64,000 bases of DNA from Escherichia phage VEc33. The position numbers and the translations under genes were made by a program. Under the pieces are notes generated by a model. It was given only the letters and a program-made list of their open reading frames with translations, made no database searches and had not been told where the DNA came from. Of the stretch, positions 35,207 through 48,600 are shown in pieces (the first letter of the stretch is position 1; each line of letters opens with the position of its first letter). Location: sequence record NC_048818.1; one strand, given 5' to 3'.

Positions 35207-36081
35207 TGAGCAAATCCTGGGGAAAATTTATTGAAGAGGAAGAGGCTGAAATGGCCTCTCGTCGTAATCTAATGATCGTTGACGGAACTAACTTAGGTTT
35301 TCGATTCAAACATAATAATAGTAAGAAACCCTTTGCCTCAAGTTATGTTTCAACTATTCAATCTCTGGCAAAATCCTACTCCGCAAGAACTACGATTGTT
35401 TTAGGCGATAAAGGTAAATCTGTATTTCGTCTAGAACATCTACCAGAGTATAAAGGTAATCGTGATGAAAAATACTCACAACGTACAGAGGAAGAGAAAG
35501 CACTGGATGGACAGTTCTTTGAGTACCTGCGTGATGCTTTCGAGTTGTGTGAAACTACATTCCCAACTTTCACTATTCGTGGTGTAGAAGCAGATGATAT
35601 GGCGGCTTATATTGTTAAACTCATTGGGCATCTATATGATCATGTTTGGTTAATCTCTACAGATGGTGACTGGGATACTTTATTAACAGATAAAGTTTCT
35701 CGTTTTTCTTTCACAACACGTCGTGAATACCATCTTCGTGATATGTATGAGCATCATAATGTTGACGATGTAGAGCAGTTTATCTCTCTAAAAGCAATTA
35801 TGGGTGATTTAGGGGATAATATCCGTGGTGTTGAAGGTATTGGGGCAAAACGCGGGTATAACATTATTCGTGAATTCGGTAACGTTCTGGATATTATTGA
35901 TCAGCTTCCACTACCTGGAAAACAGAAATATATACAGAATTTAAATGCTTCGGAAGAATTGCTTTACCGAAACCTAATTCTGGTTGATTTACCTACCTAC
36001 TGTGTAGACGCTATTGCTGCGGTAGGTCAAGACGTATTAGATAAGTTTACAAAAGATATTTTGGAGATTGCAGAACAATGA
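35206..36081 (+). CDS. Flap endonuclease / 5'-3' exonuclease (T5 D15 type)
   Basis: 291 aa; N-terminal NLMIVDGTNLGFRF, FEN-family acidic clusters (ISTDGDWDTLL, GDLGDNIRGVEGIGAKRG). Confidence 0.93.
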   Translation: MSKSWGKFIEEEEAEMASRRNLMIVDGTNLGFRFKHNNSKKPFASSYVSTIQSLAKSYSARTTIVLGDKGKSVFRLEHLPEYKGNRDEKYSQRTEEEKALDGQFFEYLRDAFELCETTFPTFTIRGVEADDMAAYIVKLIGHLYDHVWLISTDGDWDTLLTDKVSRFSFTTRREYHLRDMYEHHNVDDVEQFISLKAIMGDLGDNIRGVEGIGAKRGYNIIREFGNVLDIIDQLPLPGKQKYIQNLNASEELLYRNLILVDLPTYCVDAIAAVGQDVLDKFTKDILEIAEQ

Positions 36082-36524
36082 TTAAAATTAAATTAACTCA
36101 TCCAGATTGTATGCCTAAGATTGGTTCCGAAGATGCCGCAGGTATGGATCTACGAGCATTCTTTGGTACTAATCCTGCCGCAGACTTACGCGCTATTGCA
36201 CCAGGCAAATCCCTAATGATTGACACCGGTGTCGCGGTAGAAATTCCGCGAGGTTGGTTTGGTTTGGTGGTTCCTCGTAGTTCTTTAGGAAAGCGTCATC
36301 TGATGATTGCAAACACCGCAGGAGTGATCGACTCAGATTATCGTGGCACTATTAAGATGAACCTCTATAATTACGGTTCTGAAATGCAAACTCTGGAGAA
36401 TTTCGAGAGACTTTGTCAACTAGTGGTACTCCCACATTATTCAACCCATAACTTTAAAATCGTTGACGAACTAGAGGAGACTATTCGTGGAGAAGGTGGA
36501 TTTGGAAGCTCAGGAAGCAAGTAA
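36078..36524 (+). CDS. dut: dUTPase
   Basis: Motifs AGMDLRA, PRSSL, GVIDSDYRG, RGEGGFGSSG. Confidence 0.93.
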   Translation: MIKIKLTHPDCMPKIGSEDAAGMDLRAFFGTNPAADLRAIAPGKSLMIDTGVAVEIPRGWFGLVVPRSSLGKRHLMIANTAGVIDSDYRGTIKMNLYNYGSEMQTLENFERLCQLVVLPHYSTHNFKIVDELEETIRGEGGFGSSGSK

Positions 36525-36744
36525 TTTTGTTCATCATAATATGGTAGGTATTGATACTAATATGTCAACTTATCAGATTAAAACTACTGAACCAGAAAAG
36601 ATTGTATTAAAAATAGATAAAGAAGGTAACGTTATTTTCTGGGATCCTGAAGGTTTTGTAGAGCTTTGTACTAATACAGATAATGAGCAGTTAAAATTAC
36701 TATTAATTATTTATAATCTTGGTATTATAGAAGGCAGTAAATAA
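36487..36744 (+). CDS. Hypothetical small protein (about 68-85 aa)
   Basis: ORF track; start uncertain (GTG 36487 or ATG 36541). Confidence 0.4.
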   Translation: MEKVDLEAQEASNFVHHNMVGIDTNMSTYQIKTTEPEKIVLKIDKEGNVIFWDPEGFVELCTNTDNEQLKLLLIIYNLGIIEGSK

Positions 36745-36753
36745 ATAGTAAAA

Positions 36754-36786
36754 CCCCAGTGGATTTTGTCCACTGGGGTTTCTTTT
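36754..36786. terminator. Bidirectional rho-independent terminator at the convergence of early (+) and late (-) units
   Basis: 10 bp perfect stem CCCCAGTGGA/TCCACTGGGG, A-tract upstream and T-tract downstream. Confidence 0.75.
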
Positions 36787-36799
36787 TACTATGTATACA

Positions 36800-39622
36800 T
36801 TATGAGTTATTTGGCTTAATGAGCTCGCTCACAAGTTTTTTCAGTTCAGTTAATTCTTGCTCAAGTTTGTTAACTTTGTCAGCTTGATAACGAAATGCAC
36901 AAGCTAAATCAGCCATAATTACGTTATTATCAAGAGCTAATGTATCGTCCGCTTTATCAACAACAATTTGACGGTCTACATATTCTTCACCTTCTTCATT
37001 AACACCTATAACGTCTGCAAAGATGTCCCCGCCAGGAATTAATTTTACATATTCCGGGTCTATTTTTAGTAGGTCTTGGGCTATTAAACCAAATCGCTGG
37101 ATGTTGCTTCCATTGTACTTAAACATTGTAGGCAGCCACTGCATAACGCGATCATAGCTTTCTTTTCCATCTGTATAGATGATATCGTGCTTTAAATCTC
37201 TGTCAGAGTTAGCGGCCTTTTGAAAAATGAAATTTCCACTTGATGACCATGTAGTTATATCATTTGATGCTGGCTGGAACTGGAAGTTACAGAAAAAATT
37301 ACCATCACCACGAAGCCTTAACGAGCAAAAAGGCCATGCATTATTTCCCTGTGGAATAAGACCCCAAGTTGCGCGAATAGGATAGCCACCGGTGGACTGG
37401 GTTCCCCATGAAAGACCCGGTGCCCAACCACCGTCATTGTTAGCAATAATCTCACCCCAAACAAGAGCATTACCCCAATAGTTAGGATCGTCCCAGCCCA
37501 TCTGTTGTGTCTTCCCTGTGTATTGGGCAGAATGCGTTCTGCCGTCCGGGTAAAACTTGTGCATATAGGCCTGTATCCCTGCTTGATACAATTCTATTCC
37601 AAAAGATTCAACGTGTGTATCGCCTCTTCTGATTAAACCAGCGATAGCGTAATCGTCATACCAGTTGTAACGACTTACACCAGTCCATGTGTTGATTGGT
37701 GGATTCATAATTGAAAACAATTGCGACGCATTTCGCTCATTTCCGTCTACATAAATACCAGCCCCAGGAGCTAAGGAAATACTTTTCGCTCCTGAAAAAG
37801 TACCATTTTCATTAAACTGATAATAGTGAGACAAGTTATTATGAAATACACCTATAGTATGTTTTCCTACGCCAAGTTGAGTTTCAAAGTAAGACTGAGA
37901 AGAACCAATATCCTCGCCTTGTGTATTCTTTAATTTTGAATGGTATATACCTGCGTTTGCAGTAGTTGCATTTTCAGTTTCATTTTCAACAGTAAGACTT
38001 AGGAACTTTGGCGCATGTTTTTCCCCGAGTCCTATATTATTTCTAATACCATTCGCATCCTTAGCACCCGTACCACCAAATTGAATACCTAGGGGTAGCC
38101 ATTGCTCGGTTGTAGCATCATAAACGCCCCAATGATCCCCACCATCTGGAATGGTTAGATACTTGTTTTTATTTGGGGAATATAAAACTGTTTCACCAGA
38201 ATTCTGAAACAGCCTATCAACTCCTAAATTATATCTAGCACCTTCAAGTGTATCCGCTCCAGTACCACCAGCAATAATTGATAATGGAAGAGATTCCCAT
38301 GAGATACCATCACCATTTATGTTTTTCTGGAGTACAATAAGCCCATCATCTCTCATAACAAATCTATATAATCTATTATGCGAGTATAAAAAAGTATGAG
38401 CCCCATCCTGCACAAGTGAGTCTATAAGGAGCGTCTGACGAGAAGCATTAATATCCGACAGATCTGAAAGATTATTTTCTTTTAGTAACGATTTACCAAT
38501 AATACCTTCAGCTTTTCCAGCAGCCACTTCTGCACGTCCAGCGTCGGTAGATGCGCTTTGTGCGCTACTAGCAGCATTACTAGCTTGTTGCCCAGCCTCA
38601 ACAGCACTGTTACCCGCTTGTGTAGCGGAAATAGCAGCGGCGTCTTTTAGCACGGTAGTTTCGGACACAGCGGCATCCTTAATTGCTTGCGTCTCGCTTA
38701 CTGCACTATCCTTAATAGTCTGTGTATCAGACTTTAATTTTTCAACATCTGCTTTTAAAGCTGTTGTTTCACCTACAGCGCTATCTTTAATTAGTTGAGT
38801 ATCTGATTTTAGTTGCTCAACATCTGATTTTAAGCCTTGAATAGTGGTTACTGACTGACTAGCTGAGGTTGCAGAACTAGCTGCGTTAGTCTCACTATCT
38901 TTGGCTTTAGTCTCACTAGTTTTAGCATTTGTTTCACTAGTTTTAGCATTTGTTTCACTAGTTTTAGCATTTGTTTCAGAGGTTTTTGCAGCAGACGCTG
39001 ATGTAGCAGCTTGTGTAGAGAATGTTTCCGCCTCATTCCTAAAACCACTGGAATCCGCAGCGGAAGCGGCAGCATTAGTCTCACTGATTTTTGCTTTATC
39101 TTCACTAATTTTTGCAGCAGCAGCAGATGCAGCAGCATTAGTCTCACTGATTTTTGCTTTATCTTCACTAGCCTTTGCATTAATTTCGCTAGTTTTAGCT
39201 TTATCTTCACTAGCCTTTGCATTAATTTCGCTAGTTTTAGCTTTATCTTCACTAGTCTTTGCATTAGTTTCGGATATTTTAGCTGCTGCAGCGGATTCTG
39301 CAGATCTATCCGCTGATGCAGCAGATTGAGTAGCAGATGTAGCGGACTGAGCGGCAGAGGCTTCAGAAGCTCCAGCAGAAATAGCAGCTTCCTGTTCAGA
39401 GTTCTTAGCGTTAAGTTCTGAAGTCTTAGCAGCTATTTCAGAATCTTTTGCAGCCGCAGCAGATTTAGCAGCGGCCTCTATAGAAGATACTAACTCATTA
39501 GCAGTAATAGAGCTAATAGAATTTCCAAGAGTTACTGTGTATCTAGGAAATTTACTAGCAGTAGCTTTAGTATCATCAATATTTAATATTTGTTGTACAA
39601 TAATCTTAGTAGTTATTGCCAT
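36800..39622 (-). CDS. ltf: L-shaped tail fibre protein (pb1-like) with C-terminal intramolecular chaperone-like domain
   Basis: 940 aa; N-terminal collar-attachment region, long Ala/Ser/Thr/Lys heptad-repeat shaft, Gly-rich distal domain, coiled-coil C-terminus; last gene of the late operon as in T5. Confidence 0.75.
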   Translation of the reverse strand: MAITTKIIVQQILNIDDTKATASKFPRYTVTLGNSISSITANELVSSIEAAAKSAAAAKDSEIAAKTSELNAKNSEQEAAISAGASEASAAQSATSATQSAASADRSAESAAAAKISETNAKTSEDKAKTSEINAKASEDKAKTSEINAKASEDKAKISETNAAASAAAAKISEDKAKISETNAAASAADSSGFRNEAETFSTQAATSASAAKTSETNAKTSETNAKTSETNAKTSETKAKDSETNAASSATSASQSVTTIQGLKSDVEQLKSDTQLIKDSAVGETTALKADVEKLKSDTQTIKDSAVSETQAIKDAAVSETTVLKDAAAISATQAGNSAVEAGQQASNAASSAQSASTDAGRAEVAAGKAEGIIGKSLLKENNLSDLSDINASRQTLLIDSLVQDGAHTFLYSHNRLYRFVMRDDGLIVLQKNINGDGISWESLPLSIIAGGTGADTLEGARYNLGVDRLFQNSGETVLYSPNKNKYLTIPDGGDHWGVYDATTEQWLPLGIQFGGTGAKDANGIRNNIGLGEKHAPKFLSLTVENETENATTANAGIYHSKLKNTQGEDIGSSQSYFETQLGVGKHTIGVFHNNLSHYYQFNENGTFSGAKSISLAPGAGIYVDGNERNASQLFSIMNPPINTWTGVSRYNWYDDYAIAGLIRRGDTHVESFGIELYQAGIQAYMHKFYPDGRTHSAQYTGKTQQMGWDDPNYWGNALVWGEIIANNDGGWAPGLSWGTQSTGGYPIRATWGLIPQGNNAWPFCSLRLRGDGNFFCNFQFQPASNDITTWSSSGNFIFQKAANSDRDLKHDIIYTDGKESYDRVMQWLPTMFKYNGSNIQRFGLIAQDLLKIDPEYVKLIPGGDIFADVIGVNEEGEEYVDRQIVVDKADDTLALDNNVIMADLACAFRYQADKVNKLEQELTELKKLVSELIKPNNS
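38890..39300 (-). repeat. Tandem 21 bp (heptad-coding) repeats inside the tail fibre gene
   Basis: Near-identical 21 bp units (e.g. 38920-38940, 38941-38961, 38962-38982) and 42 bp units further on, encoding (A/S)KTSE(T/I)N-type heptads. Confidence 0.85.
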
Positions 39623-40044
39623 TATCTAGTTACCCCATCACTGATAAATACTTTACCCTCCATTATACGAAAAGAACTAATAGCTGATCCTATGACGTCT
39701 CGTGTCATAATTATATCATAGTATCCTGCAAAACGTTGGCGAGGGTTATACTTATCTCTCTCTTTGGTAGCTTTTTCGCCAATATTATCTACTGCCTCTA
39801 CAGGTAAACTTATAGCTATAGCACCTTGAGCAGCATCAATAATTTTAGTAGTAAAAGATGCCAAAGTTTCCGCATTCTCATCAAGCCCGGCCTTTATAGT
39901 ACCCCTTAGGGAATACCCTGTTAAGTTAACAGGGGTATTTGTAGGTGGATAAGTACTATCATCAACATCTAAGAATTGCATCATTAGACCATAAGGTACT
40001 TTCTCATCTATCACTAAGTCTATAACTCTATTTTCAGTACTCAT
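39622..40044 (-). CDS. Tail collar protein (T5 p132-like)
   Basis: 140 aa, between pb4-like and tail fibre genes, same size and position as T5 p132; Ig-like composition. Confidence 0.55.
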
Positions 40045-40050
40045 TATTTA

Positions 40051-42123
40051 TTACCTTATATGGATATACCCACTATTTAGGTCTATCTTCATCTTGTAGT
40101 ATGCCTCAGGATTTCCTGATAACGCAGCGTTCCTATCATAAATGATGTTAACACCGATCTGAGATAAGAAAGCATTTCCTGCTACAATTTTATCTGCCGT
40201 CACCGTCCCGTTAACAATCATGTTTCCGTGGAGAACCATTGCAGGGTTAACCCAACCAGACCCGTTCCATTGCCTTGTAAATGCTGATTGTGGGGCATTA
40301 CTGTTAAATTCAGTTAATACATCATATTTAACTGGGGGAGAACCGAAGTTACTTTGAAAGAAGGAATTAGCTTGTCCATCATCCCAATCACCTAAACCTG
40401 CTATACCTACAGAGTACATCCCAGGACCACGTTGTCCATCATGCCCTATAGTACCTTCAGTACCACTCCACTGAACCACATCTGACCAGCTAGTACCCTC
40501 TAATAACCTATTAGTAACTGGATCAAGTGTACCCGTAGTCGCATAGATATTTTGTGTCATATCTGTACGGTTAGGTGGAGTTTTTGACCAACCAGGAGGT
40601 GGATAATCTTGTTCTAGTGGTTTAGCAGGTAGAGATGTTGCTAACTTATAAACAAATACTGTCTGTTTACCTTGTAAACCAGTTTCAATATCTACGTCAC
40701 CATTTGGTGTCCCAATTACTACACCACTAGAGATACGCAAGGTAGTACCATCATAACGTATCCATTGTGTAGCGTTACCAATGTCTAATTTAGCTTTGGC
40801 AGAGGTATTATCCATACCCATCCAAATACCGGAGTTATTATCCCCCCAAGATTTACCTTGAGTGTAAATTGCTGGGTTATCCTTACCAGATAAGTTAGTC
40901 ATGATAAAGTTCGCAGCATTAATATCTCTAGTAATTACTTTACCATCAACGTTAACAACACGGTTTATAGGGTCGAAAGAAATAGGTGCTTTTCCTTCTT
41001 CATCCAGTAGACCAATGTTAATAGCACCAGTAGCTGCGTCGATTAAGAATGTCTGTCTCCAGATTTCTCCATCTTTCATGCTACCCTTAATAAAGGCATA
41101 ATTAACGTCAATACCTGTCTCATTGACAAAGCTATTGTCTAGAGGAGTATCTTCATTCAATATAAATGTTACAGGAGCTGATTCTGTTATATCTTGCTTA
41201 TTTGGTCCCCAGGCAATTGATGATACCTTAAAAGTATGCTCAACTTTCCATGGGAATGATATAATCGTTGCAGCTCTAGCAGCCCCAACGTTTATCTTTT
41301 GAGCTTTATCCCAGCCAGTCTTAGCGTATTCTTCAGAGTTTATATAAGTAACCAGAAATTCACGGACATTAGCACCCGCACCACGTTCCCAGTCCCACTC
41401 TATTCTGACATCATATCGTTCCTTACCATCTGCAATTCGTGCAGCTTTAAAGGCAATGTTAGTAGGTGCAGTAGGTGGTACAAAATTATAAGCTACAGTG
41501 AAAACGCTAGGATATTCATAATAACCAGATGAGTCAACTGTAACACCATCTGGCATCGTAACTTGACCAGATATTCTGATCTTATAGTCGCCAACGGGAA
41601 CACCACCAAATTTGATAGTAGGTCCCAGCGCGCCTATATAGTATTTAACCCATTCACTATCTTCTGATGCAGTACTTTTTAATTCAATAGTGCAGTAACT
41701 AGCTTCACCAGTAGTCTCTACAACAACTATTGGAGCACCAACACCAACGTCAACGGGTTCTGATTCAGATCTTGCTGCAGTAATTATTGGCTTTTCCTTT
41801 GTTCTAAAGTTAGTTTCATTAGAGAGGTTTATACCAATTTTTGCATTTAAAAGTTCTGAGTCGATAATTGAATCATAGAAAGCCCCCTGAACCTGGTAGG
41901 TGGTTGAGGGGGTTAAATTATTAATCATTACGAAGAAAGTATCTATACCGGTATAATCACGTCTATCTATACTTTCTCCTATTTTTAACCAAAAAGATCT
42001 ACCAATAACATCATAATCAGTATAAATGGAGTGCTGGACATAAGCCAAAGTATATCCAGTCATTATACTATTTAAGACCATTTTGGCTGGTGCATTATTT
42101 GAAATCATTAAATGGATGCCCAC
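40051..42123 (-). CDS. Tail tip/baseplate protein (T5 pb4-like)
   Basis: 690 aa, position and size match T5 pb4. Confidence 0.65.
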   Translation of the reverse strand: MGIHLMISNNAPAKMVLNSIMTGYTLAYVQHSIYTDYDVIGRSFWLKIGESIDRRDYTGIDTFFVMINNLTPSTTYQVQGAFYDSIIDSELLNAKIGINLSNETNFRTKEKPIITAARSESEPVDVGVGAPIVVVETTGEASYCTIELKSTASEDSEWVKYYIGALGPTIKFGGVPVGDYKIRISGQVTMPDGVTVDSSGYYEYPSVFTVAYNFVPPTAPTNIAFKAARIADGKERYDVRIEWDWERGAGANVREFLVTYINSEEYAKTGWDKAQKINVGAARAATIISFPWKVEHTFKVSSIAWGPNKQDITESAPVTFILNEDTPLDNSFVNETGIDVNYAFIKGSMKDGEIWRQTFLIDAATGAINIGLLDEEGKAPISFDPINRVVNVDGKVITRDINAANFIMTNLSGKDNPAIYTQGKSWGDNNSGIWMGMDNTSAKAKLDIGNATQWIRYDGTTLRISSGVVIGTPNGDVDIETGLQGKQTVFVYKLATSLPAKPLEQDYPPPGWSKTPPNRTDMTQNIYATTGTLDPVTNRLLEGTSWSDVVQWSGTEGTIGHDGQRGPGMYSVGIAGLGDWDDGQANSFFQSNFGSPPVKYDVLTEFNSNAPQSAFTRQWNGSGWVNPAMVLHGNMIVNGTVTADKIVAGNAFLSQIGVNIIYDRNAALSGNPEAYYKMKIDLNSGYIHIR

Positions 42124-44957
42124 TCCACAGACTGTTCTCCATCATCCCCTTCTGCCCTAATACGAAAATACAATTTTCTATTTATACCTAGAGCACCGCT
42201 GTTCTGGAGAGCAAAGTCTGCCTTATTATATGTTAATAAATAGTCATAAGTATACTGATTTTCAATACGTACACTTCTTAACATCCTATTTTGCGAATCG
42301 TGTATTTCAAGTGTATAAAATATACTCTCTATTATATCTTCTTCAGGTATTCTATCCCAAGCTAGTTTTACATCTGGGCCAACAAACTCAGTTACATCTC
42401 CAGAAGCAGTATTAGTTACCCTAAAATTAGATACTACACTAAGGTTTTTAGCAGAGTTAAGTTCTATAGACAGAGTCACCGGGGAACTTCTTCTACCATT
42501 AATATCTACTGCTCTTATCTCAAATATAGCCAGACCTGCTGGTTCCCCAATTATTTCTTGGATCATACGTTCGTTAGGATTGGTCTCTAACTGTTGTACT
42601 ATGTAAGGTTCGGCATGGCCTGAGTGCACAATAGAGTAATAAACTACATTATTGGTTAGACTCGGAAGCCAGGATAACTCACCATTTTTACCTATAGAGC
42701 CTACTAAACCGCCAGGAGTAGGGGTATACTTAAAGTCCCTAGGAGGAAGGACATTATTACTAATATCGGGAATATCATTACCGCTATTATCAACCTGCTC
42801 AGAGTTGATGAATACATCTTCTCCATACTCCTGTAAGGTAACATTTATCTTACCCTCTCTAGAGTTTTCAACCTCATCAACTAGGAAATACTTTTTGTTC
42901 CACCCGTAACGGTCATACGTGAATGCAATAGCATCATTGGGTTCAATCCCTATGAACTGGTATGGTAATGAGAATGAAAGTGTTCTTGAGTATCTGGATT
43001 TCTTAAGTTCTCTATCCGCAAAACTTCTTGCAGTATAGTAGTTAGTAATATTAGCAAAAGATAGTTGTAATTTTTTATCTAGGTTCTTGTCCTGTTCCTT
43101 ATACTTGGAATTATAGAATGTAATAGAATTAGTTTTCCAGCTAAGGGCGGGATCTACGATAGATGCTTGAACTGAGTTGAATTTATTTCTACCAGTAGTA
43201 TCTGATAGCTCCAAATCACCGTAAGTATCTAGAAAATTAATCTCTAAGGGAGTATTAGAGTATTTTTCTACAGTAACCCTATACTGGCCAGATAAATTGT
43301 TAATAGCCCCACCATAGGACTCTAACAAACCTTGCACATTTTTAAATACTGATTCAGATGTATCCAAAATAGTATTCATTTGTACTATTTGTCTATTTTC
43401 TGCTAGTGGATCAGTCCACCCAACGTATCTCCAATATGGCTGCCAAGATACCTGATAGGATTCATCTATAATATCTAAAATAGCTGCCTCCTGTATTAAT
43501 TGCTGAAGAGGGAACTGATCAATGGTAATATTAGCGCCATATCTATCAGAGGTTAAGTAATCAAGTGTTTGCCAAATACCATTTAAACTAGTACTATTAG
43601 CAGTTACTCTACCATCAGAATGATAGACTTTTACTTTTTTACCTTGAATTTCAGCACTAACTTCTGGAATCTCAGTCCTATTTTCATTAATAGTGAAGCG
43701 CACCACTGCGTATGCAGTATCTAGTAGCTTATATCTAGCATCCCAGTACTCCGGCCCATTGCCATTCATATTCTGAAGGTAGAATCCACGTTCTTTAGCT
43801 ATATCTACTAGTACTTCAGAGGCTGTTTGATCAGATTTTCCGTGATAAGTCCAAATCCTTATGTCACCATTTCCATCATTATACTTATACTCTTGACCAT
43901 GGACGGATGGACTACTAGAAGAGGTTCCAGATGCTATCCTCTGCATTGTATCTCCTGCTATTTTTTTAGTACCAAAGCAGGTTCTAGCGGAGCTGTCATT
44001 AGCATCTACGCAGATCATAGGGTTATCACCAAAGGAGAAATCAAGAAAACCATCAATCTCCCCCTCAGCAAAGGCGTATACGACATAAACTATGTTGGGA
44101 TTGTGTAGTTCTGTATCAGCAAAAATGGGTATTCCAGGAATTTTTTGAACTCCATAAACCACCGGTATGTATTTAGCAGCAAGGTTAAAATCTATATCCA
44201 CTTCCTTAGTGACAGTTTCATAGTATTTTTTAAGGCTGTAGCTTCTAGATAAACCAAATAATTTTTTCTTTGATTTTAGCTTGTATCTTTCTTCTTGAAC
44301 CTGATATTTTGCTAGGATAGAGATACTTTTATTAGAGTGGAAGAACCCATAGTCTTCTTGGTACTCAGGTCTTTTAGCCCCGTTAGATGGAACTAATTGT
44401 CCTGCTACAACTTCAAGCCCCCTATGGGAAGCGTCATCAGTATATCTACCATTAACTCTATCAAAGTCATAGAATTGGTTAGAACAATTCCAGGTAATTG
44501 TAGAGGTTCCTACTCCAGAGGTACTAATGTTATCTTTAATACCCCCTCCAGTAATCCTCCCCCTAAAGTATAGTAAAGGACCATTTGTATCTGGGTCTAC
44601 TGGCAGAATAGAACCATCTTCAGTAATAATTGCTTGATGAATTGATACGGTTCTATCTAAGAAGGATACACCATTTTGTACTAGTTTTAGTACTTCATCC
44701 TGTGCTGTACCAGTAATAGTAAAAGATAGACTACCAATAGATAAATCTCTATTTTGTTTATGTGAGCTAATAGACTTAACTTTACCCGCCTGGTATAAGA
44801 TGCCATTATATAGTACATCTCTAAAATAATCAGTTAAATAGATAAAAGCAGTACTAGTACCAGTAGAGCCAGGTAATTCTAGGGAAATTAGACTAGCAGT
44901 TTTTATTCTGCTATTATTTTTTAAGTAGTTTCTAGCACTATCTAGTATTTTCTTCAT
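42108..44957 (-). CDS. Baseplate hub protein (T5 pb3-like)
   Basis: 949 aa, position and size as T5 pb3. Confidence 0.7.
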   Translation of the reverse strand: MKKILDSARNYLKNNSRIKTASLISLELPGSTGTSTAFIYLTDYFRDVLYNGILYQAGKVKSISSHKQNRDLSIGSLSFTITGTAQDEVLKLVQNGVSFLDRTVSIHQAIITEDGSILPVDPDTNGPLLYFRGRITGGGIKDNISTSGVGTSTITWNCSNQFYDFDRVNGRYTDDASHRGLEVVAGQLVPSNGAKRPEYQEDYGFFHSNKSISILAKYQVQEERYKLKSKKKLFGLSRSYSLKKYYETVTKEVDIDFNLAAKYIPVVYGVQKIPGIPIFADTELHNPNIVYVVYAFAEGEIDGFLDFSFGDNPMICVDANDSSARTCFGTKKIAGDTMQRIASGTSSSSPSVHGQEYKYNDGNGDIRIWTYHGKSDQTASEVLVDIAKERGFYLQNMNGNGPEYWDARYKLLDTAYAVVRFTINENRTEIPEVSAEIQGKKVKVYHSDGRVTANSTSLNGIWQTLDYLTSDRYGANITIDQFPLQQLIQEAAILDIIDESYQVSWQPYWRYVGWTDPLAENRQIVQMNTILDTSESVFKNVQGLLESYGGAINNLSGQYRVTVEKYSNTPLEINFLDTYGDLELSDTTGRNKFNSVQASIVDPALSWKTNSITFYNSKYKEQDKNLDKKLQLSFANITNYYTARSFADRELKKSRYSRTLSFSLPYQFIGIEPNDAIAFTYDRYGWNKKYFLVDEVENSREGKINVTLQEYGEDVFINSEQVDNSGNDIPDISNNVLPPRDFKYTPTPGGLVGSIGKNGELSWLPSLTNNVVYYSIVHSGHAEPYIVQQLETNPNERMIQEIIGEPAGLAIFEIRAVDINGRRSSPVTLSIELNSAKNLSVVSNFRVTNTASGDVTEFVGPDVKLAWDRIPEEDIIESIFYTLEIHDSQNRMLRSVRIENQYTYDYLLTYNKADFALQNSGALGINRKLYFRIRAEGDDGEQSVEWASI

Positions 44958-45568
44958 AAACTTTCCCGTAAATTTAATGAGATGCCGGAATATGTTCCGT
45001 TATTATTTAGTGTAGATCCGAAAGCATCACCATTCATGAGTTTTGTTCTAAATAGTATTCCGTTAAACACTGGTTTCTCAGCCCCAGTAGTAGTTATAAA
45101 TAAATCAGGATATAAGTTTATAGACCACGTATTGCCTGATTTATTGAATGATGTTATTTTATATACTTTTGGGTGGTTAGATAGCTTAAATAGATCCCCA
45201 GGTTTTGGAGTACCTGTTAGGAGCCCTTTTGTATCCATAGTTATAGTAGAACCCTTCTGCCCCGCAGGTATGTTTACTAGACTAGTATTACCTCTAACCC
45301 TGAAGGCCTCATATTGTGGTAGTATAACATCTATATAACCACCGGTCCTTTTGTACTCTAGAATAAAAGCATCTAGAACACTATATTCATCTGGAAATAA
45401 TTCTGGGTAGGAAATATTTATACCCCAGTACTGAGCAGATACCTTAACTTCGTTAACTTTACCATTAGGTAACTCATCACGAATTACTGGGTCATTATCA
45501 ATCAGGTTAACACTTTCGAATCCTAATCCTGAAAGTTCTGGATTCGTGTATGGGTCTGGTAGTCTCAT
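44954..45568 (-). CDS. Distal tail protein (T5 pb9-like)
   Basis: 204 aa, directly downstream of the tape measure gene; strong SD AAGAGGAGAAATTAACT. Confidence 0.7.
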   Translation of the reverse strand: MRLPDPYTNPELSGLGFESVNLIDNDPVIRDELPNGKVNEVKVSAQYWGINISYPELFPDEYSVLDAFILEYKRTGGYIDVILPQYEAFRVRGNTSLVNIPAGQKGSTITMDTKGLLTGTPKPGDLFKLSNHPKVYKITSFNKSGNTWSINLYPDLFITTTGAEKPVFNGILFRTKLMNGDAFGSTLNNNGTYSGISLNLRESL

Positions 45569-45595
45569 AGTTAATTTCTCCTCTTAGATACAATT

Positions 45596-45624
45596 ATTAT
45601 AATAGTATTAGAAAATTTTATCAA
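45596..45624 (-). promoter_or_regulatory. Sigma70-type promoter, minus strand (TTGATA, 17 bp, TATAAT), upstream of pb9-like gene
   Basis: Reverse complement of 45596-45624 reads TTGATA-N17-TATAAT. Confidence 0.55.
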
Positions 45625-45644
45625 GAAATTTTTATTTTTCCATA

Positions 45645-45671
45645 AAGAAAAGGAGGACTCAAAGTCCTCCT
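45645..45671 (-). terminator. Rho-independent terminator (minus strand) after tape measure gene
   Basis: GGAGGAC-loop-GTCCTCC; on minus strand followed by TTTTCTTTATGG. Confidence 0.6.
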
Positions 45672-45677
45672 CCAGTT

Positions 45678-48600
45678 TTAAGAATTTCCTAGTGTTTTTA
45701 GGCTAGCACCATTCTCATTCAGAGCTAATTCTACTGCATCCCTCAGAGCACCGCTATTACTAGAGGCGAACTCTCTAAAACTAGCAGCATCCATAGCACT
45801 AATATTCAGGATGATAGGTCTTCCTGAGGTTGAATTAGAGGAATTTTTTAACTCATCATTAGGTGTAGCTTTCATAGGAATCATAGGTGTAATTACTTCT
45901 GTACCATGTTCTCCCATCTGATAGCTAACCCCTGGGTACATATTACCACCTTCGGCACGCGGCACAAATGAATTAGCATTACCAATACCTTGATCACCAC
46001 GTACATAGGATAGTTCCCCAGCATTAGCAGACATAGATACATCAATGTTCTTCTGACGCTCTCCAAGAGTTAAATAACTAGTAGTATCCGCTCCAGAATC
46101 TGCAATACTTGACATACTAGAGGCAGAGGATGCCTGCGCTAATGCCAGAGCACCTGCTAATCCTGCCGCTACCATCAGAGGGATAGAGAACGGGTATGGT
46201 ACAGCTGTTGCTGCCTGCATAACTGCTACTGCAGTTTGGATGATAATCTGCTTCTTAGCTGCATCTTGTTGAATCTTCAGCTTTTCAGCTTCTAGCTTCT
46301 TCAATTTAGCTTTAGATGCTTCTGATTTACCATCACGTTTCTGCTCCGCTGCGATAGCTGCATCAATAGCACTAACCTGTTGACTAGTACTATACTGAAT
46401 CATAGAAGATACAGTTTGCATGCCAGAAGCAATCAAGGAGGTAGTATCTAGGGATCCCTGAGAGAACTGAATCATGGCGTTAGTTAAGTTACCCATACTT
46501 TGAGCCACAGCGGTTGCTTCAGAATTTAATTCAGATAGCTTAGAGATTGCCTGATCATAAGAAGCCATTCTATTTTGCATATCTGCAAAATCTTTGTCTT
46601 CCCCAGATAGTCCAGTTGTAGGAGTGTACACAGCACCCACAGAAGACCCTACCTGTTGCTGCATTTGGCCTTCTCTTTGCTTTCTAAGTTGCTCTAGAGC
46701 AGCAGCAGTTTTATAGATCTCATTACGATATTTGATCTCTTCTTCGGTATTGCCCTTAGATAGTTCTAGCTGTTCTTGCAAAACAGATAATCTTTCTGTA
46801 AGAATCTGGGCTTGGCCAGTAACATTTCTTTGTGTTTGGCTGACTTCTAATGCATCCATAAGAGCTGATACATGTGATGCAGTTGCCTGCTTCTCAGCCT
46901 CCCATAACTCCCGGCTTATTTGTGCTTGCGCACGTCTAGACTGTTCCGCCTCTTTCTGTTTGTCCGCTTGTTTTGTATACCATTCGTACTTCTCTTTCTC
47001 TACAGTTAGTTCTAGTTTTAGCTGAGCTAATCTATATTGAGTAGTAGTCATAGTACGGTCATTCAGAAGAGCTATCTCACGATCTACACCAAGAATTTTA
47101 TCTGTGTAATCCTTGACCTTCTTCTGAGCTTCCATACCCTGATTGGTAAGTTTAAGTTTCTCCAGCTGAATTTTTTCAATTTCTTTTTCAACAGCTTTAT
47201 TCCCCTGGTTTGTTTGAAGAACACGGCGTAAAGCAGCTTCTTGCTCTTCTAACTGTTGCAACTCTAAACGTCTACCAGCTTCCTGAGCCTTTTCCTTATC
47301 CTTAGTTTGATTATACACATCAGCTATTTTCTGTTGAACTGCTAATTGATTTTTAGTTTCATTACCAGTTAGTTTAACATACTCAGATAGAGCCTGAGAT
47401 GCAGTTTTCATTTCAGACAGGGTGTTATAGCCCAGGTTAAGGTTTTTAACATACTCATCGGCACTCTTACCAGTGCCTAAGGATAGAGATTCTATGTTTT
47501 TTATAGCATCTGCTAAAGTAGCACTAGTTTTAGCAGCAGTATCTGTATTCTGAGCAACGTTCTGTATATCATTAGCTAAGTCACTAGCAGTTTTCTTAGT
47601 TTGATTATATGCTTTCTGTTGTTCAGTTAGTCCTTTTAATACTGTGGAGTTAAAGTCATATACAGCACCAGGATCAGTAGTATCCCTCTGTAGATTAATC
47701 TGTTTTTGGAATTCTGGATTAGCTTTTGCAGCAGCAGCACCCGCAGCTTGATAGGCTGACTTCCAAGCATTAAGGTTTTCAGTAGAATCTTCTACTTCCT
47801 TACCTAGTCTGGTTACTTGTAGACCCATAGCCGCAGTTTCTTCTACGAACTTTTTATTAGCTTCGGAAGCACCAGCAGCAGCAAGACCAACAGGAATACC
47901 TTCACCAACTTGACGTATGGCTAATCTTGTATAGAAATCCGCTTGCTCCATTCGTTTATCGAATTCGGATTTTAGCTTATTACGCTTATCAAGAGATTCC
48001 TTATACATATCTAGAGCTTTATTATAACCTTCTTCAGAAGCGGCCAAACTTAAAGCAACAGCACCAACGTTGGTAGGATCTATCTGTCTATTGGTTTTTT
48101 CTTGAGCTCTAGCTGCTTCAGCAGATACAGAAGCCTGAGAAGTATAAAATACTGTGTTGATAGCATCAATTACCGGCCCTAAATACTTAGCAGCAGCCTG
48201 CTGAATCTTTCTCAGCGCGGCATCAGCATTAGCGGCAAATTGCTCCCATGGAGTAGCACGTAAAACTTCATCTAAGTAACCAAAACGTTTAGTAGACTCT
48301 GCTATAACAGCATTAGCATACGCTTGCTGTTTCTGGAAGGTAGTAAGGCTATTAATATTATACGTTATACCTGTGTTTGCAGCATTTAACTGTTTAACGT
48401 AATCAGCATAAGCATCATTAAGACGAATAGTAACACCAAGTTCATCCAGAAGTTCGATTTCCTGTTTAGATACACCCTTAATTACACGGTTAAGTGCATC
48501 AGTCATATCAACGCCAAGAACAGCAGCAGCACGACGAGCTACTAGACCAAATTTATTAAGTTGTTCAGCATCAAAACCGTATGCAGAAGCAGAGGATGCT

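Follow-up and report, generated by a model that had tools for sequence, protein, structure and literature searches.

Among the closest known relatives of the locus analysed here are the tail fibre proteins pb1 of phage T5 and LtfA of phage DT57C. T5 pb1 is 1396 aa long and its cleavage motif contains the serine S1264 (PMC4690869); residues 1-40 form the anchoring domain and residues 41-218 a coiled-coil domain that is separate from the beta-rich 'fiber domain' (PMC12750041). The long helix of DT57C LtfA begins at T40; three such helices make up a coiled-coil bundle that projects from the LtfC collar (PMC10713586). We analysed a 64,000-nucleotide stretch of Escherichia phage VEc33 (NC_048818.1; 'the window'), in which a first-pass annotation had placed tandem heptad-coding repeats in an L-shaped tail fibre gene.

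The phage is a Tequintavirus (T5-like), and the gene at 36800-39622, which encodes 940 aa, is ltf, the L-shaped (lateral) tail fibre gene orthologous to those of T5 pb1 and DT57C LtfA (ltf, all of its features given below and ltfC lie on the minus strand). Synteny, LtfA and PHROG matches and a Peptidase_S74 domain all bore out the initial gene assignment. PDB 8HQZ chain d (DT57C LtfA) matches aa 1-212 with E = 4e-35, and phrog_24369, a profile of T5-pb1 length (1396), matches aa 3-198 with E = 1e-56; this family and the two others matched, phrog_5481 and phrog_14572, are each labelled 'tail fiber protein'. The gene lies directly downstream of the ltfC, pb4 and pb3 genes and is convergent with the dUTPase and flap endonuclease genes, with Pfam matches for LtfC at 39622-40044 (the collar protein gene; PF23926, E = 8.4e-15), PB4 at 40051-42123 and dUTPase at 36078-36524. 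The ltfC stop codon and the ltf start codon overlap by one base, the gene order of the region is the same in T5 and OSYSP, and the tail genes beside ltf are closest to those of T5_ev219 (96.6%). The window shares with T5 pb1 the gene position, a homologous anchoring N-terminus and a C-terminal S74 chaperone with the cleavage motif SDxxLKxD[IV]. The first ~100 aa are nearly identical to those of DT57C LtfA, including the anchoring domain (39503-39622, aa 1-40), which is near-identical to LtfA residues 1-40, is predicted to insert under the LtfC collar and has no helix before aa 41 in the AF2 model. DT57C has branched fibres (LtfA and LtfB), whereas the window holds a single ltf gene.

Beyond the anchor, translation of the minus strand gives heptads of the (A/S)KTSE(T/I)N type, as the first-pass annotation had read them. 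One stretch reads AAKTSET NAKTSET NAKTSET NAKTSET KAKDSET and another NAKTSED KAKTSEI NAKASED KAKTSEI NAKASED KAKISET, and the consensus of the repeats is xAKxSEx with Ala and Ser at the core positions. A core of Ala and Ser is unusual among canonical coiled coils. A first coiled-coil segment (39050-39502, aa 41-191), delimited by the heptad listing and by an AF2 helix over the same residues, contains 20 in-register heptads (aa 50-189), in which position 2 is Ala in 16 of 20 and Ser in the rest and position 5 is Ser in all 20; the block-mean pLDDT is ~74-91 over aa 41-180. The coil is then broken by a hinge (39017-39049, aa 192-202, within DSSGFRNEAETFST), for which AF2 predicts no helix and around which pLDDT falls below 50 (aa 190-205). 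A second segment (38477-39016, aa 203-382; AF2 helix with pLDDT up to 96, supported by the heptad listing) carries Ala/Ser heptads until aa 256; beyond them the coil has a hydrophobic core and contains a diverged 25-aa repeat. At 0.148 nm per residue, the predicted rods are ~22 nm (aa 41-191) and ~27 nm (aa 203-382) long. AF2 modelled a single chain (pTM 0.28), and trimeric coiled-coil packing through the arrays is predicted by homology to DT57C LtfA and T5 pb1. The 'fibre shaft' of the first-pass annotation is right in that the repeats encode a heptad-built arm of the fibre, but this arm is the proximal coiled-coil arm and not the distal rod.

T5 pb1 has AKTSETN heptads at aa 50-210, in the same register and within its coiled-coil domain. 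However, no hinge is predicted inside its coil, which spans 178 aa, compared with ~342 aa in two rods here. DT57C LtfA shares the GFRD hinge motif, but its hinge lies at aa 123, ten heptads closer to the N-terminus than at aa 193 here, and it lacks AKxSExN arrays before the hinge. The motif GF[RK][DN] is conserved among related proteins, of which 29 have it at aa 193, 18 at aa 196 and 33 at aa 123.

At the DNA level, Tandem Repeats Finder (TRF) on the window returned three arrays, with periods of 21, 42 and 63, confirming the tandem near-identical 21- and 42-bp units of the first-pass annotation. The 21-bp array (38892-38978, aa 215-244) consists of NAKTSET units (4.1 copies, 90%, score 132) and includes an exactly periodic tract of 65 nt (38913-38977); the three consecutive copies first seen at 38920-38982 are ttttagcatttgtttcactag twice, followed by ttttagcatttgtttcagagg. 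The 42-bp array (39151-39284, aa 113-157) has two heptads per unit, KAKTSEI NAKASED (3.2 copies, 93%, score 224), and the 63-bp repeat (39057-39179, aa 148-189) has three, [NA]AK[AI]SED KAKISET NAAASAA (2.0 copies, 90%, score 204), and ends at the hinge. The 42- and 63-bp units therefore stand just before the hinge and the 21-bp units just after it. A diverged 75-bp (25-aa) direct repeat with 75% identity was found further along segment 2 (38691-38833), a region for which TRF gives a period of 75 in relatives. The DNA repeats of T5 pb1 are weak (TRF scores 53-59), in contrast to the near-perfect units here, and a search of the literature brought up nothing relevant on tandem repeats in the tail fibres of Tequintavirus.

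The units are more alike than the protein demands. In the 21-bp array, heptad units 24 and 25 are identical at 21/21 nt and unit 26 matches at 19/21; in the 42-bp array two units are identical at 42/42 nt (units 11 and 13, and 12 and 14, each 21/21); and in the 63-bp repeat units 15 and 18 are identical at 21/21 nt. Exact direct repeats reach 58 nt (at an offset of 42 nt), compared with ≤17 nt in codon shuffles and ≤21 nt in shuffles that preserve the heptad motif column by column. Where units encode the same peptide, 41 of 49 codons are identical; random synonymous codon choice would give 21.2 ± 3.5, and 0 of 20000 simulations reached 41, which contradicts codon bias alone as the cause of the identity. 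This excess suggests that the units arose recently, and we infer intragenic duplication, gene conversion or unequal recombination as their source. Turnover of units is evident in a stretch of 11 heptads whose length does not vary, in which each lineage carries its own set of identical paralogous units while orthologous units are only 9-21/21 nt identical, compared with 91-96% in the flank.

The same repeats create three long overlapping reading frames, on the plus strand at 38901-39329 (antisense, 142 aa) and 39011-39316 and on the minus strand at 38848-39264. These had been suspected to be spurious and we judge them so as well: a PHROG search with the three gave no match, they lie wholly inside a well-supported gene, and they are open because the repeated codon set leaves alternative frames free of stops, so that the arrays account for spurious ORF calls inside ltf. 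That these ORFs (101-142 aa) are real genes, or that the region is a disordered or beta linker and not a coiled coil, is highly improbable. The low-complexity Ala/Ser/Lys/Thr/Glu composition would suit a linker, and in T5 a hypothetical ORF, T5.134, is annotated inside ltf on the opposite strand. On the other hand, AF2 predicts a continuous helix through the arrays (block-mean pLDDT 86-91 for the first arrays, aa 101-180, and 66-82 for the second, aa 211-250), the 28 Ala/Ser heptads keep a strict 7-residue register, and published accounts treat the homologous regions of DT57C and T5 as coiled coil (PMC10713586, PMC12750041). The repeats very probably encode the Ala/Ser heptads of a coiled coil that forms the proximal arm of a T5-like L-shaped tail fibre.

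In the assembly that we propose, aa 1-40 would hold the fibre under the LtfC collar, and from aa 41 three chains would form a helical bundle with a small-residue core of Ala (position 2) and Ser (position 5). The bundle would comprise one rod of aa 41-191 and another of aa 203-382, with the short hinge DSSGFRN between them, and the arm would bear a distal receptor-binding module (aa 383-805) followed by a self-cleaving S74 chaperone (aa 806-940). Duplication, gene conversion and unequal recombination may turn the units over, so that lineages end with different sets of identical units, and occasionally whole heptads would be gained or lost with the coiled-coil register kept.

We then compared fibre lengths across related phages, and the repeat-linked length variation that the first-pass annotation had predicted is indeed seen among them: copy number is not invariant among isolates. 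A first homologue query with aa 1-398 missed the full-length relatives (696 aa was the longest among the matches listed) and brought in many autotransporter adhesin look-alikes; the homologues of the fibre were collected with the full-length protein as query. In 66 related fibres, a landmark at the end of the arm falls at aa 142, 149, 156, 170, 205, 219, 240, 247, 250, 254, 256 or 257; these positions differ mostly by multiples of 7 aa, with a few variants by 2-4 aa. The window adds a thirteenth value, 261, found in none of the 66. The commonest landmark is 254 (25 proteins), followed by 257 (17 proteins), and these two dominant lengths imply that arm length is under constraint and not freely variable. 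Among individual alleles, OSYSP (+108 bp) has a 108-bp duplication beside the 25-aa repeat (TRF period 108, 97%); VSe12 lacks 294 bp, or 14 heptads (98 aa), with the two arrays fused and the hinge removed; contigs L011-L013 and L015 are 7 aa shorter; and the Logan contig L035 is 49 aa shorter through a 147-bp deletion. Further length alleles occur in mar004NP2, NG_A1 and FFH1-type phages. Unit lengths are all divisible by 3, and every variant observed stays in frame.

A near-identical relative is contig L034, which is 99.93% identical over 10 kb (~7 substitutions) and in which the sole indel in a 22.8-kb alignment is one 21-bp unit, present in the window (38913-38933, one heptad; it could be placed equally well elsewhere in the periodic tract). 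This unit is also missing in OSYSP, MET_P1_179_112, Elw, T5_ev212, IrisVonRoten and L6jm, more than 20 phage records have a corresponding span that is shorter by 21 nt, and each of the relatives examined has one heptad fewer here than the window. An exact look-up of the 940-aa product in the assembly collection returned nothing, and hence no independent assembly with the +1 allele, while the exact 38-nt pattern of two units occurred in viral contigs in OSYSP only and in none of the metagenome contigs, which yielded no additional alleles. In a rival reading the repeats would be real but static, with the extra unit (or its absence elsewhere) a product of mis-assembly. Assemblies do suffer here because of the arrays, and published T5-like genomes are broken or frameshifted at this place: the phiLLS 'complete genome' lacks ~980 bp of ltf including the repeat region, the ltf of SA001 is frameshifted into three ORFs, and some IMG/VR contigs are affected, one of which (L028) stops 327 nt into ltf. 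The deletion in L035 lies between 32-nt perfect repeats, about the size of a k-mer, and part of the allelic series may be artefactual because some alleles are known from short-read assemblies (Logan, SKESA-type), in which periodic tracts can be collapsed. As a general account of the copy-number differences, however, mis-assembly is unlikely. Artefacts usually collapse repeats and the window has the longer form, the 65-nt tract is shorter than an ordinary read, every length variant keeps the reading frame, and variants are found in many independently finished genomes (OSYSP, VSe12, mar004NP2, NG_A1, FFH1-type).

Genuine variation could also be fast, with the arrays acting as a contingency locus at which slipped-strand mispairing occurs at high frequency within one phage population and offers mixed arm lengths to selection. 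As at such loci, the tandem units are near-identical and their number differs between near-identical genomes, and the periodic tract, the 58-nt exact repeat, the one-unit difference from L034 and the broad allelic series among relatives all fit this scenario. Yet it seems to us quite improbable. The units are few (2-4 near-identical) and long (21-63 bp), for which the slippage rate is expected to be far below that of classical contingency tracts; more than 20 independent isolates have exactly equal length in this region; and one indel against ~7 substitutions in 10 kb implies a modest rate. Moreover, with every change in frame there is no on/off switch, and a change in copy number switches neither expression nor reading frame. 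One unit amounts to only ~1 nm of arm length.

Occasional gain and loss of whole heptads in the proximal arm may have an effect on adsorption. A further idea, which we put forward tentatively and regard as rather doubtful, is that the Ala/Ser arrays flanking the hinge form an evolvable module of length and hinge that both tunes reach and serves in module crossover. Recombination between the arrays would then tune the distance between tail tip and receptor-binding domain, or remove the hinge, of which the VSe12-, NG_A1- and mar004NP2-type alleles are examples. Reach could be matched to the depth of O-antigen or capsule, and the shared heptad DNA could serve as a crossover point for distal modules among T5-like, lambda-Stf-like and T7-like fibres. 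The relatives provide a natural allelic series of arm lengths, with and without the hinge (landmark aa 142-261, a range of ~18 nm), that could be used to relate fibre reach to adsorption to O-antigen-bearing hosts, and it shows heptad-quantised indels together with concerted evolution shaping phage fibres.

The distal part of the protein departs from T5. The distal fibre/receptor-binding module (37208-38476, aa 383-805; phrog_5481 and phrog_14572) is 99.7% identical to phiLLS in nucleotide sequence; fibres of ~50-kb siphophages reach 86-91% and, at the amino acid level, lambda-Stf-type fibres 72-83%. That the window could be phiLLS itself was considered on this account and rejected, since T5_ev219 is closest for the adjacent tail genes and the repeat region is missing from the phiLLS record. 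The module is 423 aa long and of another family, whereas the distal domain of T5 pb1 is 1045 aa and polymannose-binding; similarity of the distal part to the T5-type polymannose-binding domain (pb1 970-1263) was undetectable, and the T5 pb1 C-terminal structure was absent among PDB sequence matches at E ≤ 0.01. By its sequence, we regard the protein as an Ltf orthologue whose receptor-binding module has been swapped. The chain ends in an intramolecular chaperone (Peptidase_S74; 36803-37207, aa 806-940), matched by PF13884 over aa 806-860 (E = 5.8e-8; 33.3 bits, cut-off 22), and the predicted autocleavage serine is S806, as SDRDLKHDI aligns with the T5 motif SDARLKNDV that contains S1264. The fibre had been called shorter than T5 pb1, taken as about 1400 aa, and the ORF of 940 aa is so against 1396 aa. 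A low number of repeats as the cause was rejected by the longer coil here (~342 against 178 aa); the difference arises because the distal module is shorter and of a different type.

Segmented heptad fibres are found outside the T5-like phages as well. The T4-type fibritin (gpwac), as described by Letarov et al. in 2005 (cited in PMC10713586), is reportedly a trimeric heptad-segment fibre in which the number and length of the segments differ among related phages. It differs from the fibre here in its hydrophobic a/d core and in a C-terminal foldon in place of S74, and the two have no sequence relationship. Heptad gain and loss is an ordinary property of fibrous phage proteins, and none of what we see is unexpected for coiled-coil fibres. 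The same heptad motif recurs in long tandem runs in a metagenomic YadA-type trimeric autotransporter adhesin (P0021), as ~30 NAKTSET units in a T7-type fibre (P0046), and in a long tandem run in the N-terminus of the RAD2 depolymerase; all three have other anchors and distal domains, and the likeness of the heptads to YadA-type stalks and other fibres may be compositional or convergent and not homologous. The RAD2 N-terminus forms an extended triple-helical bundle by cryo-EM (PMC8552709).

The repeats noticed in the first-pass annotation lie in the L-shaped tail fibre gene ltf (36800-39622, minus strand, 940 aa), the sole long ORF here with homology support. The observation and its interpretation stand with three corrections: the repeats are assigned to the arm of the fibre rather than its shaft, the shortness of the fibre has another cause than repeat number, and the effect of each unit is modest. 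The neighbouring genes, LtfC collar protein (39622-40044, PF23926), straight fibre pb4 (40051-42123) and a tail protein in the pb3 position (42108-44957), with dUTPase and flap endonuclease genes convergent to them, identify a T5-like tail-tip cluster; the gene order around ltf matches that of phage T5, and the phage is a Tequintavirus. The Ltf N-terminus matches DT57C LtfA (PDB 8HQZ, E = 4e-35) and phrog_24369, a family of tail fibres whose profile spans 1396 positions, and the C-terminus carries a Peptidase_S74 chaperone domain (aa 806-860), in which SDRDLKHDI aligns with T5 SDARLKNDV, the segment containing the catalytic S1264 of T5 (PMC4690869). ltf is 95% identical to that of the related phage OSYSP and 99.7% identical to that of phiLLS across the distal 1843 bp, and the adjoining tail genes are closest to T5_ev219 (96.6%). 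A hairpin with a 14 bp stem and T runs on both strands (36750-36782) separates the convergent ORFs ltf and DUF7369 and corresponds to the bidirectional rho-independent terminator annotated in T5.

Read in the ltf frame, the repeat region keeps a strict seven-residue register across 28 heptads, as the heptad-coding claim had it: 20 heptads (aa 50-189), a 14-residue interruption, DSSGFRNEAETFST, and eight more (aa 204-259). The fifth position is Ser in 28/28 heptads and the second is Ala in 24, with Ser in the remaining four. In DT57C LtfA, a long helix starts at T40 and three copies leave the collar as a three-helix coiled coil (PMC10713586), and AKTSETN heptads also occur in register in T5 pb1 (aa 50-210). 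In an AlphaFold2 model of Ltf aa 1-420, built with 22 sequences, residues 1-40 are non-helical and two helices follow, 41-191 and 203-382, separated by a break of low confidence (192-202); the block-mean pLDDT is 86-91 across the first arrays (aa 101-180), and lower, 66-82, across the second array just past the hinge (aa 211-250). The homologous coiled coil and the modeled helices together indicate that the repeats code for the proximal coiled-coil arm and not, as "fibre shaft" had suggested, for the distal rod. From the homologues, we infer that the arrays would pack as trimers. Taking 0.148 nm per residue, the rods come to ~22 nm and ~27 nm, compared with ~26 nm for the entire T5 coiled coil, and each heptad adds ~1 nm of arm. 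Coiled coils of heptad repeats are already known from phage fibres, and this one is an ordinary member of the kind.

The hinge motif GF[RK][DN] (39017-39049, aa 192-202) is conserved among T5-like Ltf proteins. DT57C-type proteins have it at aa 123 and window-type proteins at 193 or 196 (123 to 193 is exactly 10 heptads); several of the short natural alleles, such as VSe12 and NG_A1, lack it. The heptad AK[AT]SETN recurs widely as a building block of stalks: among the proteins P0021, P0046, P0149 and P0209 are a YadA-type trimeric autotransporter adhesin with long tandem runs, a T7-type fibre with ~30 NAKTSET units in tandem, and Ltf proteins of Epseptimavirus that have >30 heptads in tandem.

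The fibre is shorter than T5 pb1, as had been noted (940 vs 1396 aa), but repeat number is ruled out as the cause because the coiled coil, ~342 aa, is nearly double that of T5. The difference is due to module exchange: the distal part (aa 383-805) has 423 aa compared with 1045 aa in T5 and is assigned to other families (phrog_5481, phrog_14572). From SQSVTTIQGLKSD onwards (36803-38860, aa 254-940), fibres of other phage types share the second coiled-coil half, the distal domain and the chaperone: amino acid identity is 72-83% to fibres of ~60 kb siphophages having a lambda-Stf-type N-terminus (PF08400); aa 515-908 share 86-91% nucleotide identity with fibres of ~50 kb phages such as slyngel, G29-2 and atuna. 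The fibre is a mosaic, joined where the second heptad array ends. The ~60 kb group includes 'Aeromonas phage SD04', and the nucleotide matches include unannotated 'Campylobacter phage' records, apparently mislabelled coliphages.

At the DNA level, Tandem Repeats Finder, run over 36000-42000, reported three arrays, of period 21 (38892-38978; 4.1 copies, 90% matches, score 132), 42 (39151-39284; 3.2 copies, 93%, score 224) and 63 (39057-39179; 2.0 copies, 90%, score 204), and the three near-identical copies claimed at 38920-38982 are all visible in the raw sequence. The arrays of period 42 and 63 run up to the hinge, and that of period 21 begins just past it. The repetition exceeds both chance and what the protein demands: exact direct repeats reach 58 nt, against ≤17 nt in codon shuffles and ≤21 nt in shuffles preserving every heptad column, and unit pairs with the same peptide share 41/49 codons, where 21.2 ± 3.5 are expected from the synonymous codon usage of ltf itself (41 was reached in 0/20000 simulations). 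The long ORFs suspected to be spurious are present at 38848-39264 (minus), 38901-39329 (plus) and 39011-39316 (plus); all lie within the well-supported ltf gene, none had a PHROG family match, and they are spurious since the repeated codons keep two antisense frames free of stops.

The predicted length variation is seen among relatives, with a near-isogenic pair that differs, unusually clearly, by a single unit, and with natural alleles that form a series. The nearest relative, contig L034, from E. coli assembly GCA_012558145.2 (AASSYD020000038.1; ltf product 933 aa), is 97.9% identical to the window across 22.8 kb, and the sole indel in the whole alignment is 21 bp at 38913-38933, present in the window. 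Across 36800-46800 there are only ~7 substitutions (99.93% identity); this block holds ltf, ltfC, pb4, pb3, pb9 and part of the tape measure gene, and its flanks carry 19-93 mismatches per kb, which suggests that a module of tail tip and fibre was exchanged recently. OSYSP, MET_P1_179_112, Elw, T5_ev212, IrisVonRoten and L6jm all lack the 21 bp unit, and >20 further phage records have spans 21 nt shorter than the window query. Periodic tracts are prone to mis-assembly, and collapse may account for some of the short alleles in k-mer assemblies; an artefactual expansion in the window is unlikely because it is the longer form and the periodic tract is only 65 nt. Several records are visibly broken in this region. 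One IMG/VR contig stops 327 nt into the gene. SA001 ltf (Salmonella phage vB_SalS_SA001, MN445182; L006) is annotated as three separate ORFs, and its translated homologous span has 47 stops, which fits frameshift errors in the early part of the gene, before the repeats. The phiLLS 'complete genome' (KY677846; L003, L005) opens inside ltf (~38642) and closes at the ltfC stop, so that it is without the 5' ~980 bp (38642-39622) and any heptad array; the ORF annotated as its 'tail tip protein' is truncated, at 575 aa.

Other relatives carry further changes in copy number, which varies in heptad quanta. OSYSP has a 108 bp tandem duplication (copies 97% identical), four related records (L011-L013, L015) have one heptad fewer, the Logan contig L035 has a deletion of 147 bp flanked by perfect repeats of 32 nt, and VSe12 lacks 294 bp (14 heptads), with the start of array 1 fused to that of array 2 and the hinge gone. 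In a survey of 117 T5-like Ltf N-termini from protein searches, the end-of-arm landmark IQGLK, present in 66, occupies 12 positions: residue 254 in 25 proteins, 257 in 17, 247 in 9, and otherwise 142, 149, 156, 170, 205, 219, 240, 250 or 256. Eight of the eleven offsets from 254 are multiples of 7, and the window's position, 261, occurs in none of the 66. A stretch of 11 heptads before the hinge is common to eleven phages; its orthologous units are identical at 9-21 of 21 nt, against 91-96% in the flank, and the sets of identical paralogous units differ by lineage, a case of concerted evolution under a length constraint.
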